Positions 41,187 through 41,955 of a stretch of DNA of 50,188 bases are shown here, in pieces. The notes under the pieces were generated by a model. The model was not told the DNA's origin. It was given only the letters and a program-made list of their open reading frames with translations, and made no database searches. Position 1 is the first letter of the stretch; every line of letters starts with the position of its first letter. This stretch comes from Chlamydiota bacterium. Its GTDB lineage: Bacteria > Chlamydiota > Chlamydiia > Chlamydiales > Parachlamydiaceae. Position numbers and translations under genes: made by a program. The stretch covers positions 1 to 50,188 of the forward strand of contig JABDEI010000001.1 of the NCBI GenBank assembly GCA_013287145.1, written 5' to 3'.

Positions 41187-41242
41187 GTAGTCAGTAGTCG
41201 GTAGTCAGTAGGAAGTCAGAATCCAGAATCCAGAATTCAGAA
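41187..41242. repeat. Heptamer tandem array (left, reverse orientation)
   Basis: GTAGTCA GTAGTCG GTAGTCA GTAGGAA GTCAGAA TCCAGAA TCCAGAA TTCAGAA. It is the reverse complement of the array at 41851-41955, with fewer units. Confidence 0.9.
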
Positions 41243-41524
41243 TGGCGTTGTTGCATAAATCTAATGCCGTTCTTTCAGAACTCAATCCTCCCTCTTGGAT
41301 ACCCAGGCCTCTCGCTGCGCTTCGGCCTGGGCTATGACATGAAGGCCTTTCAGGCCATGAAATCAGTACATTTTTAAAAAGATTGTGTTTTCAATGGTCT
41401 GAAGGACCATAATAACATAGCCCAGGCCGAAGCGAAAGCGAGAGGCCTGGGAAAAAGGATAAGCAAAAGCTGAGTTCTGAAAGAACGGCATCTTCTTTCA
41501 CAGATTTATGCAACAACGCCATTC
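41240..41524. repeat. Family-A nested palindromic element, copy A2 (MITE-like)
   Basis: Three nested arm pairs. Outer: GAATGGCGTTGTTGCATAAATCT (41240-41262) with 41502-41524. Middle: AATGCCGTTCTTTCAGAACTC (41263-41283) with 41472-41491. Core: ACCCAGGCCTCTCGCTGCGCTTCGGCCTGGGCTATG (41301-41336) with 41417-41452. Confidence 0.9.
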
Positions 41525-41534
41525 AGAATTCAGA

Positions 41535-41820
41535 ATGAGCGGCAGAAGGATGTTTTACCGCATAAATCAATTCCCCATTCGGGGAATGCGTTGGTAGCCT
41601 CGGGTTTCAACCCGAGGTATATGCAAAGGGACATTTTGTGCCCCGTAGGGTCGCAAGAAAACGAGTCGAAACGAATGTTTTTTACCTAGCACATATCTTG
41701 CGGCTCTAACGAGACGCCACTCTTTTTTTTACGACACCTCGGGTTGAAAACCCGAGGCTACCAACGCATTCCCCGAATGGGGAATTGATTTATGCGGTAA
41801 AACATCCTTCTGCCGCTCAT
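41535..41820. repeat. Element B: 84/85-nt terminal inverted repeats around a 117-nt centre (MITE-like)
   Basis: ATGAGCGGCAGAAGGATGTTTTACCGCATAAATCAATTCCCCATTCGGGGAATGCGTTGGTAGCCTCGGGTTTCAACCCGAGGT (41535-41618) pairs with 41736-41820, with one 1-nt indel. Each arm contains the local hairpins ATTCCCC-ATTC-GGGGAAT and CCTCGGG-TTTCAA-CCCGAGG. Confidence 0.9.
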
Positions 41821-41955
41821 TCTGGATTCCTACTGGTTACCTGGCTTCATTCTGAATTCTGAATTCTGAATTCTGGATTCTGGATTCTGGATTCTGGATT
41901 CTGGATTCTGGATTCTGACTTCCTACTGGCTACTGACTACTGACTACTGACTACC
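41821..41955. repeat. Heptamer tandem array (right)
   Basis: From 41851: TCTGAAT x3, TCTGGAT x6, TCTGACT, TCCTACT, GGCTACT, GACTACT x3, GACTACC. Degenerate units occupy 41821-41850. The array overlaps the 3' end of ispF. Confidence 0.9.

Follow-up and report, generated by a model that had tools for sequence, protein, structure and literature searches.

A 770-bp nested palindrome (positions 41187-41955) separates a cysJ-like reductase gene from the convergent ispF on contig JABDEI010000001.1 of a chlamydia-like bacterium, of which we analysed positions 1 to 50,188 (referred to below as the window). With a probability of roughly 0.7, we conclude that this structure represents an older hairpin with arms of tandemly repeated 7-nt units (heptamers) which was later invaded by two MITEs (miniature inverted-repeat transposable elements) of the IS903 group, designated A2 and B, and that it arose by successive mobile-element and replication events at a gap between convergent genes that tolerates them. 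The transposon ends of A2 with their target-site duplication, the multi-copy nature of the modules and the plain hairpin at the same site in the closest relative speak for this conclusion. The family identity of A2 and B, the dyad position of B and the clade-wide commonness of repeat-armed hairpins all go beyond a preliminary description of this DNA, which had listed the modules from the letters of the sequence.

Architecture of the palindrome

All modules named in the preliminary description were recovered by inspecting the sequence, by Tandem Repeats Finder and by an inverted-repeat scan (Table 1), and its view of a large palindrome holding two further palindromes was borne out by the inverted-repeat finder as well as by RNA and DNA folds. 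The layout needed one correction, as the symmetry axis of the whole region lies at the centre of B (around 41677) and not between A2 and B. The outer arms (41187-41243 and 41891-41947) are 95% complementary over 57 nt, and A2 breaks the left arm only, without a mirror copy in the right arm. Folding had been proposed as a check, and the region turned out to be far more stable than shuffled sequences both as RNA and as DNA: the RNA fold of 785 nt reached -507 kcal/mol compared to -222 +/- 8 kcal/mol for shuffles (z = -35), and the single-strand DNA fold of the same 785 nt reached -301 kcal/mol (z = -45). Because these fold energies are far below those of the shuffles, chance is excluded as the origin of the palindrome. 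The only open reading frames (ORFs) overlapping the region code for 41-43 aa, and a CRISPR-like or protein-coding reading of it was rejected.

Table 1. Coordinates of the palindrome modules, related elements and flanking genes in the window
Feature	Position	Strand	Remarks
A2, 277-bp MITE of the IS5 family, IS903 group, palindromic interior	41244-41520		Terminal repeats, 9-bp duplication, multi-copy
Left copy of the 9-bp target-site duplication ATTCAGAAT	41235-41243		Identical to 41521-41529
B, palindrome of 282 bp located on the region's dyad	41537-41818		Arms 41537-41604 / 41751-41818, 68/68 identical
B core, second MITE type of the IS903 group	41560-41795		Begins GCATAAATCAATTCCCCATTCGGGGAAT...; X1 contigs with canonical ends
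Left heptamer arm in a single 7-nt register	41187-41243		GTAGTCA GTAGTCG GTAGTCA GTAGGAA GTCAGAA TCCAGAA TCCAGAA TTCAGAA T
(GTAGTCA)x3.6	41187-41211		Tandem Repeats Finder
(CAGAATC)x3.9	41217-41243		Tandem Repeats Finder
Inner end of the left arm, ATTCAGAATTCAGAAT	41521-41536		Right copy of the ATTCAGAAT duplication (41521-41529) plus one TTCAGAA unit
(ATTCAGA)x2.3	41521-41536		Tandem Repeats Finder
Degenerate heptamer stretch, 30 nt, ATTCTGGATTCCTACTGGTTACCTGGCTTC	41819-41848		Right arm only
Right heptamer arm	41849-41955		(ATTCTGA)3 (ATTCTGG)6 ATTCTGA CTTCCTA CTGGCTA (CTGACTA)3 C; mirrors the left arm with more units
(ATTCTGG)x9.9	41849-41917		Tandem Repeats Finder
(CTACTGA)x4.6	41923-41954		Tandem Repeats Finder
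Acido-Lenti-1-like two-hairpin module, left A2 arm	41302-41357	+	RF01687, 30.3 bits (gathering score 37)
Mirror copy of the module, right A2 arm	41395-41451	-	RF01687, 34.2 bits (gathering score 37)
A28, A-family MITE	28126-28392		In the left arm of the TCCAGAA/TTCAGAA hairpin 28110-28520
The same module in A28	28194-28249		RF01687, 36.9 bits (gathering score 37)
Third A copy, degraded ends	46345-46600		Inside the inverted repeat 46236-46270 / 46628-46662
cysJ-like FAD/NAD(P)-binding reductase gene, left flank	40012-41175	+	Pfam FAD_binding_1 and NAD_binding_1
ispF, right flank	41937-42434	-	Pfam YgbB

Element A2 and its target site

Judged by its sequence, A2 belongs to the MITEs of the IS903 group within the IS5 family. 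It is bounded by terminal inverted repeats GGCGTTGTTGCATAAATC(T), located at 41244-41262 and 41502-41520, which are perfect over 19 nt; in the inverted-repeat scan, the pairing around these ends covered 41228-41262 and 41502-41536. The 18-bp end is identical at 16 of 18 positions to the IS903B end GGCTTTGTTGAATAAATC and at all 18 positions to the ends of full-length metagenome elements that encode an IS5-family transposase (see below). The longest ORF of A2 codes for 43 aa, so the element carries no transposase gene.

The two copies of ATTCAGAAT that flank A2 match at 9 of 9 positions, and excising A2 together with one of them gives back an unbroken 7-nt register. Their nature as a target-site duplication had been called ambiguous in the preliminary description; the IS903-group ends, the 9-bp duplications of the family and the uninserted hairpin in the closest relative settle the question in favour of an insertion. 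A 2-bp duplication of AT would fit the 7-nt register as well, but was rejected because the duplications of the family are 9 bp long. A near-palindromic 9-mer, ATTCNGAAT, is available at every unit of the TTCAGAA array.

Two further copies of the A family were found in the window, which are 87% (around 46345-46600) and 72% (28126-28392, designated A28) identical to A2. A28 and the hairpin that contains it show the same configuration as the main locus, and the flanks of A28, ATCCAGAAT and ATCCAAAAT, match at 8 of 9 positions. Two side observations concern these copies. A histidine-phosphatase gene (27434-28132) reads through the heptamers and receives its stop codon from the A28 end. The inverted repeat around the third copy (35 nt, 83% complementary) forms a second nested palindrome at a convergent junction, between an alpha/beta-hydrolase gene and argS.

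Element B on the dyad

In the inverted-repeat scan, the arms of B extended to 41519-41607 and 41748-41836 (89 nt, 96% complementary). The outer 23 nt on each side of B (41537-41559 and 41796-41818) consist of an identical 23-mer, GAGCGGCAGAAGGATGTTTTACC, which was seen only at this locus: the 68-nt arm bearing it had no other match in the window, and neither the 23-mer nor any relative of B was present in any of the loci that were fetched. The interior could be compared with run X1, a soil metagenome and the single public run containing the locus, which was used in the form of its contigs only. Other copies of the B interior in X1 end in GGCGTTGTTGCATAAATC, and contigs on B-type interiors run outward into a canonical end and heptamers, reading either ...CCAGAAGCCAGAAT, GGCGTTGTT and GCATAAATCAATTCCCC in succession or ...GTTGCATAAATCTATTCCCCA. 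Because these contigs join the B interior to a canonical end, the core of B can be assigned to a second MITE type of the IS903 group. The copy at this locus has lost the first 9 nt of the canonical terminal repeat (GGCGTTGTT) at either end, and GAGCGGCAGAAGGATGTTTTACC stands in their place.

B is not a simple insertion: it lies on the dyad, shows no clear direct duplication and has its canonical ends symmetrically replaced. Because identical non-canonical ends cannot come from two independent events, we infer that one arm of B was copied from the other, a history that is not directly legible in the sequence. Template switching at quasipalindromes copies one arm onto the other and perfects imperfect inverted repeats (PMC7202029), and a process of this kind would account for arms that agree at 68 of 68 positions and share non-canonical ends. 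It was demonstrated for a few bases in E. coli reporters, whereas B would need the copying of at least 23 nt.

The heptamer arms

After removal of A2 and one copy of ATTCAGAAT, both arms show the same unit types in the same order. The left arm then reads GTAGTCA GTAGTCG GTAGTCA GTAGGAA GTCAGAA (TCCAGAA)2 (TTCAGAA)2, and the right arm, as its reverse complement, (GTAGTCA)3 GTAGCCA GTAGGAA GTCAGAA (TCCAGAA)6 (TTCAGAA)3, followed by 30 extra degenerate bases. Apart from these bases, which stand innermost in the right arm, the arms differ by whole 7-nt units only (two versus six TCCAGAA, two versus three TTCAGAA). Slippage had been put forward earlier as the source of the unequal unit numbers, and it is upheld by the conserved order of the unit types and by the restriction of the differences to entire units.

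As 7 and 3 have no common factor, three successive units of a stop-bearing heptamer are enough to close every reading frame, and the GTAGTCA array does so on either strand. Arrays of this type can therefore adjoin or overlap gene ends at the cost of a few codons, so that even insertions reaching into a gene end become tolerable, as is the case at ispF, whose last codons (...PVVSSQ*) and stop codon are encoded by the GTAGTCA array. In an alignment, the IspF protein of the window extends 4-5 residues beyond the C-terminus of three relatives.

The orthologous site in relatives

We read the orthologous junction in seven relatives, which were fetched via their MurA proteins. The closest relative (L136/L137, with 89% identity in MurA) has the hairpin without any MITE: a plain structure of GTAGCCA, GTAGTTG and GTAGTCA units begins 4 nt past the cysJ-like stop codon, at the same site as the window's outer arrays and homologous to them. 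The site is empty in L006 and L140, where the cysJ-like and ispF genes overlap by 4 nt. The junction holds a 78-bp hairpin of AAATGAT-type heptamers in L002, palindromes with CACAGAG-type arms in L004 and L135, and a G+C-rich heptamer hairpin in L138. Because L136/L137 keeps the plain hairpin and L006 and L140 have no gap at all, the hairpin is placed first and the MITEs later; as far as the compared sequences indicate, A2 and B both postdate the heptamer hairpin, and turnover at this site is fast. Because A2 is not mirrored in the right arm, its insertion is the latest of the events.

For the clade background, we examined 129 kb consisting of the window and the seven loci. Of the 88 tandem-repeat arrays, 32 had a period of 7, more than any other period, and 24 had a period of 9, the next in frequency. 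The same DNA contains 24 palindromes with arms of at least 20 nt, none of them inside an ORF; nine are located at convergent junctions, six between divergent genes, and seven lie 5-57 nt past the upstream stop codon within a tandem gene pair. Within the window, folds much more stable than those of shuffled sequence were obtained for eight intergenic regions. In the literature, we found no report of MITEs or heptamer palindromes in Parachlamydiaceae or Chlamydiae. As a side observation, palindromes with CACAGAG-type arms and unrelated centres recur at non-orthologous sites (31280-31454 and 48670-48790 in the window, L004 4380-4653, L006 7418-7675 and L135 2831-3193), two of them between divergent genes.

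Copy numbers and assembly support in X1

Copy numbers in X1 were estimated from the summed word depth of its contigs. This amounted to about 832 for the unique flank, 13,000-150,000 for A2 (15-180 times the flank) and 7,000-25,000 for the B interior (41560-41795), whose depth rises from about threefold that of the flank at its margins to 9-30 times further in, and to about 1,281 for the outer 23 nt of B. Because the modules are repeated to such different degrees, a single composite element moving as a unit is extremely unlikely. The window has three A copies, and A2 and the B core are present in multiple copies in X1.

X1 supports both gene flanks, the outer arrays and the junction between A2 and B. 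Its contigs match 40700-41227, 41495-41602, 41605-41749 and the sequence from 41904 onward without a difference, and a single 108-bp contig spans the passage from the end of A2 through the heptamers into B. In the degenerate stretch that starts at 41819, this left-junction contig is also the only one that maps, up to 41829, and it then diverges. Its depth of 1,281 can be compared to about 1,216 expected for a single-copy junction with the arm counted twice, and to about 1,664 expected for a double junction, which suggests that A2 is present on one side only.

The IS903-group family in metagenomes

We scanned public metagenome contigs with the exact 20-mer ATGGCGTTGTTGCATAAATC, which consists of the A2 end and two flanking bases, and found it in 86 loci with G+C contents from 34% to 58%. 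In these loci, the 18-mer of A2 forms the ends of long elements (1,037-1,133 bp), of variants that include a passenger ORF (1,590-1,619 bp) and of many short MITEs (114-293 bp). The product encoded by the long elements, about 315 aa in length, scored 346 bits against the NCBIfam model NF033579 (IS5 family transposase; cut-off 140) and is about 42% identical to the IS903B transposase over 97% of its length; IS903B itself has a length of 1,057 bp in the plasmid record used. Perfect 9-bp direct flanks were present in 9 of 32 complete metagenome elements, and 7-8 of 9 positions matched in three more. For IS903, a target duplication of 9 bp is on record, as is a target motif that is palindromic (PMC2577343, Table 1).

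Most family members in other hosts have no heptamer arrays at their ends. At L077, an unrelated metagenome locus, one MITE lies in a heptamer arm with a 9/9 duplication, CTTCTGAAT. A second one is centred precisely on a heptamer hairpin that immediately follows a stop codon, and its inverted flanks match at 9 of 9 positions. The element at L068 begins at the contig start and offers a single flank only. As an observation apart, the 1.6-kb variants (L053 446-2056, L067 23-1612 and L129 1628-3246) carry an additional ORF (about 185-195 aa) that contains a SEC-C-like CPCxSGxKYKKCC motif and is oriented opposite to the transposase gene.

Several further searches delimited the distribution of the family. 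Pfam, applied to 32 of the 38 ORFs in the window, showed no transposase of any kind, and a protein search with the transposase returned thousands of homologues, none labelled chlamydial. BLASTN of A2 and B against plasmids gave no match, nor did a metagenome scan with a degenerate pattern of the A left arm. A 21-mer of the A core matched no chlamydial genome in a scan of a genome collection, and its matches were mostly in G+C-rich genomes; five of them were rejected as A elements, since they represent the shared Acido-Lenti-1-like hairpin described below.

A2 has in common with IS903 and IS903B its 18-bp ends and 9-bp duplication as well as, through its full-length relatives, a related transposase, and the preference of IS903 for palindromic targets (PMC2577343, Table 1) resembles the situation at the heptamer site. 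A2 and B differ from these elements in having no transposase, in interiors made of unrelated hairpin modules and in their chlamydia-like host, and the A2 site lies off the IS903 target motif. Outward-facing promoters have been reported in the terminal parts of IS903-group elements (PMC3281130).

The Acido-Lenti-1 module

At curated thresholds, Rfam returned nothing in the window, and the many sub-threshold microRNA matches were discarded as generic to any long hairpin. The arms of A2 are 91-94% identical over about 35 nt to loci in metagenome-assembled genomes (MAGs) of a Planctomycetota bacterium and a member of the Chthoniobacteraceae (Verrucomicrobia). The respective stretches pass the threshold of the Acido-Lenti-1 family RF01687 (L045 5792-5846 and L028 5344-5398, with 42.2 and 39.8 bits), and no IS903-type end was found near them. 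The A-family arms share the two-hairpin layout and conserved bases with Acido-Lenti-1, whereas the window copies score between 30 and 36.9 bits, below the threshold, and occur as inverted pairs inside a transposon-ended element. From these alignments, the Acido-Lenti-1 motif looks like a repeat module of the Planctomycetes-Verrucomicrobia-Chlamydiae (PVC) group and of Acidobacteria which was picked up by the A-family MITE, and it may represent a module of repeat DNA and not a free-standing RNA gene.

In a Planctomycetaceae MAG (L040 5230-5285), about seven heptamers, mostly AATCCGC, immediately adjoin this Acido-Lenti-1-like hairpin. The pairing of heptamer arrays with such hairpins may reach beyond the chlamydiae within the PVC group.

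Flanking genes, host placement and other repeats of the window

The cysJ-like gene stops at a conserved ...RDVY* motif 11 nt upstream of the hairpin, and this C-terminus is identical in the four aligned sequences (window, L002, L004 and L006). For host placement, we used MurA (42796-44199), which is 82-89% identical to metagenome proteins whose named matches are labelled 'MAG: Parachlamydiaceae bacterium', so the contig is Parachlamydiaceae-like; the G+C content of the window is about 41%. A Ham1/RdgB-like gene is located between ispF and murA in L002, L004, L006, L135 and L138. It is absent from the corresponding interval of the window (42435-42795), which contains no detectable remnant, and also from L136 and L140.

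Elsewhere in the window, two direct copies (20460-20572 and 21737-21840, 84% identical over 116 nt) form palindromes with arms of the 9-mer AAAGGACNT and bracket an ORF of 348 aa (20691-21737) without a Pfam match. A degenerate terminal repeat of IS903-like type closes each copy and adjoins ATTCTGN heptamers, and the arrangement resembles a MITE-flanked gene cassette. Five tandem ORFs of 433-497 aa occupy 2248-9629 on the minus strand, four of which (3576-9629) repeat with a period of about 1.57 kb, and related genes lie nearby in the opposite orientation (9732-11087 and 12350-13639, plus strand). The ORFs 2248-3549 and 9732-11087 match the glycosyltransferase region with the sugar-binding DXD motif and the first part of the catalytic domain of TcdA/TcdB, and 3576-5069 has no Pfam match.

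Proposed history of the locus and points against it

According to the history that we propose, the locus would have started as a GTAGTCA-type heptamer hairpin directly after the stop codon of the cysJ-like gene, which is the state seen by comparison in the closest relative. Replication slippage may then have extended the arms into TCCAGAA/TTCAGAA arrays. The B core, a non-autonomous element whose family assignment to the IS903 group is established, would have come onto the dyad, and one arm with the locus-only 23-mer would subsequently have been copied onto the other by intramolecular template switching or fold-back. Such copying would explain why the arms agree completely, why the terminal repeats lack their outer 9 nt on both sides and why any direct duplication is gone. 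As the last step, A2 transposed into the left arm at ATTCAGAAT and duplicated 9 bp, as its flanks still record. The presumed engine of these transpositions is the IS903-like transposase of about 315 aa acting in trans, and its presumed preferred target is ATTCNGAAT.

Several observations weigh against this history. The ends of B align with the canonical 18-bp terminal repeat at 13 of 18 positions at best. A clean duplication is likewise missing around B, where the flanking 9-mers ATTCAGAAT and ATTCTGGAT agree at 7 of 9 positions in direct and at 8 of 9 in inverted orientation, with ATTCNGAAT itself being nearly palindromic. No X1 contig covers 41830-41862, so this junction has no independent support. 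With regard to the mobilising enzyme, no IS903-like transposase was found in the 50-kb window or in the loci of the relatives, and no contig of X1 is at least 80% identical in nucleotide sequence to the element at L093. The preference for ATTCNGAAT is based on a few ends from the window and X1, and the duplications in other hosts do not show such a motif. Finally, the IS903 target motif WTTYA-N9-TRAAW does not fit the A2 site.

Alternative explanations

Perfect inverted arms of 68 nt and long heptamer arrays are hard to assemble, and the X1 contigs break within the arrays and leave the gap just mentioned, so an assembler walking the inverted repeats might have made a chimeric palindrome. We consider such an artefact very improbable, as the passage from the cysJ-like gene to ispF is exactly as in the seven relatives, the right arm is no copy of the left one (it is without A2 and has other unit numbers and the 30 extra bases), and independent X1 contigs agree with the assembly, including the junction contig, whose depth is near the single-copy expectation and points in the same direction. 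If the structure is real, the whole 770 bp might still be one composite mobile element with the heptamer arrays as long terminal inverted repeats, given that the outer arms are inverted repeats and that TCCAGAA/TTCAGAA arrays stand beside A-type ends again at 28110-28520 and in X1 contigs. We rejected this single composite transposon as extremely unlikely and largely refuted: the outer 23-mer of B is confined to the locus while the A core reaches 50-180 times the flank depth, L136 shares the outer GTAGTCA arrays at the same site without an insert, A2 has its own 9-bp duplication, and the flanks differ among the A copies. Transposition might also have generated the arrays, in that the heptamers would be footprints or serial duplications at element ends and not the prior target; most element ends in the window adjoin ...CAGAAT, and the 9-bp duplication ATTCAGAAT overlaps itself by 2 nt, which would create a 7-nt period. 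Against this explanation, which we hold to be highly doubtful, stand the heptamer hairpins of unrelated units without such an element (e.g., L002 4518-4596, L136 1937-2086 and L138), the existence of hairpins with arms of period 9 and period 10, and the lack of arrays at the ends of most family members in other hosts.

Two further explanations assign the locus a function. The A2 arms might encode a structured non-coding RNA of the Acido-Lenti-1 type, which would make the locus an RNA gene; the scores in A2 and A28 come near the threshold of 37 bits, and the instances in the PVC group that pass it are closely similar to the A2 arms. We regard an RNA gene as improbable, considering that every match in the window stays below the curated threshold and that the module is present twice per element, in both orientations, within a transposon-ended repeat with tens of copies. 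To our knowledge, Acido-Lenti-1 itself has no known function, which we also count against this explanation. The heptamer hairpin might instead be selected as a bidirectional terminator or as a 3' structure that stabilises RNA, with the MITEs as passengers, and this would in part be compatible with an invaded older hairpin. At 16 of 22 classifiable sites, the distance between a stop codon and the start of a repeat-armed hairpin is -2 to 67 nt, hairpins of unrelated sequence recur at this junction in five lineages, the predicted stability is extreme, and a consensus scan detected small outward-facing terminator-like hairpins with T-rich tails in both B arms (two weak sites). At the same time, two relatives have no gap at the site, six hairpins lie between divergent genes, i.e. 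in promoter regions, a U-tract is missing from the large stems where the genes end, with no intrinsic terminator detected by the scan at the stem base, and the fast turnover of the sequences fits neutral or selfish DNA as well as selection on shape. Selection of this kind is therefore a tentative possibility to us, and we prefer the invasion of an older hairpin by two MITEs, under which the structure likely needs no function of its own: it would be tolerated selfish and replication-derived DNA, and the very stable bidirectional RNA or DNA hairpin predicted at both 3' ends would likely be incidental.

Similar systems

Heptameric repeats are over-represented in bacteria and occur in intergenic positions in Nostoc and Xanthomonas, sometimes as inverted pairs (PMC4692102). 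The short tandemly repeated repetitive (STRR) sequences of heterocystous cyanobacteria and the GGGAATC repeats of Xanthomonas share with the window arrays the intergenic tandem 7-nt units, the over-represented period, the length variation between close relatives and, in some cases, inverted pairs capable of forming stem-loops (PMC4692102). They belong to other phyla and have other unit sequences, so the likeness is one of kind and not of membership. In the window's clade, unlike in these systems, inverted pairs beside stop codons are the rule, and the units drift along one arm and are mirrored in the other.

Intergenic palindromes serving as preferred landing sites of insertion sequences, with nested structures as a result, are also known from repetitive extragenic palindromes and bacterial interspersed mosaic elements (REP/BIME) (PMC1525189). 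The targeting insertion sequences reported there are from other families, and the arms in the window are variable tandem arrays and not a fixed REP consensus; no REP-associated tyrosine transposase was seen among the window ORFs covered by Pfam (32 of 38). A MITE of Porphyromonas gingivalis likewise combines transposon ends with tandem repeats in the form of a minisatellite (PMC4596501). Its repeat is located inside the element, while the window arrays are target and flank, except at 20460-20572 and 21737-21840, where arrays of 9-mers are internal to the elements.

Implications

The processes that we propose for this locus, namely insertion of IS903-group MITEs, slippage of heptamers and symmetrisation of a palindrome, are known ones, met here in a host group for which a structure of this kind had not been described before. 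They make a 770-bp structure readable as a history, from a hairpin through an element on its dyad and the symmetrisation of the arms to a dated insertion with its duplication. IS903-group ends, which are known chiefly from enterobacterial resistance plasmids, would accordingly mobilise MITEs in chlamydia-like bacteria as well. For annotators of chlamydial MAGs, sites of this type offer a reason for contig breaks and for 3' extensions encoded by repeats, as seen in ispF. The repeat-armed hairpins beside stop codons appear as a clade-wide feature with a candidate role in termination, and a curated Rfam motif, Acido-Lenti-1, becomes tied to repeat DNA inside a transposable element.

On a broader and rather speculative view, which we put forward as unlikely but worth stating, environmental chlamydiae and perhaps the wider PVC group would maintain fast-evolving hairpins after stop codons, with arms made of 7-, 9- or 10-nt arrays. 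These would be built by slippage and symmetrised by template switching, and would serve both as bidirectional terminators or RNA ends and, through ATTCNGAAT, as landing pads for IS903-group MITEs with Acido-Lenti-1 cargo. If this is true, the Acido-Lenti-1 family of Rfam would be a module of mobile elements instead of a free-standing RNA gene.

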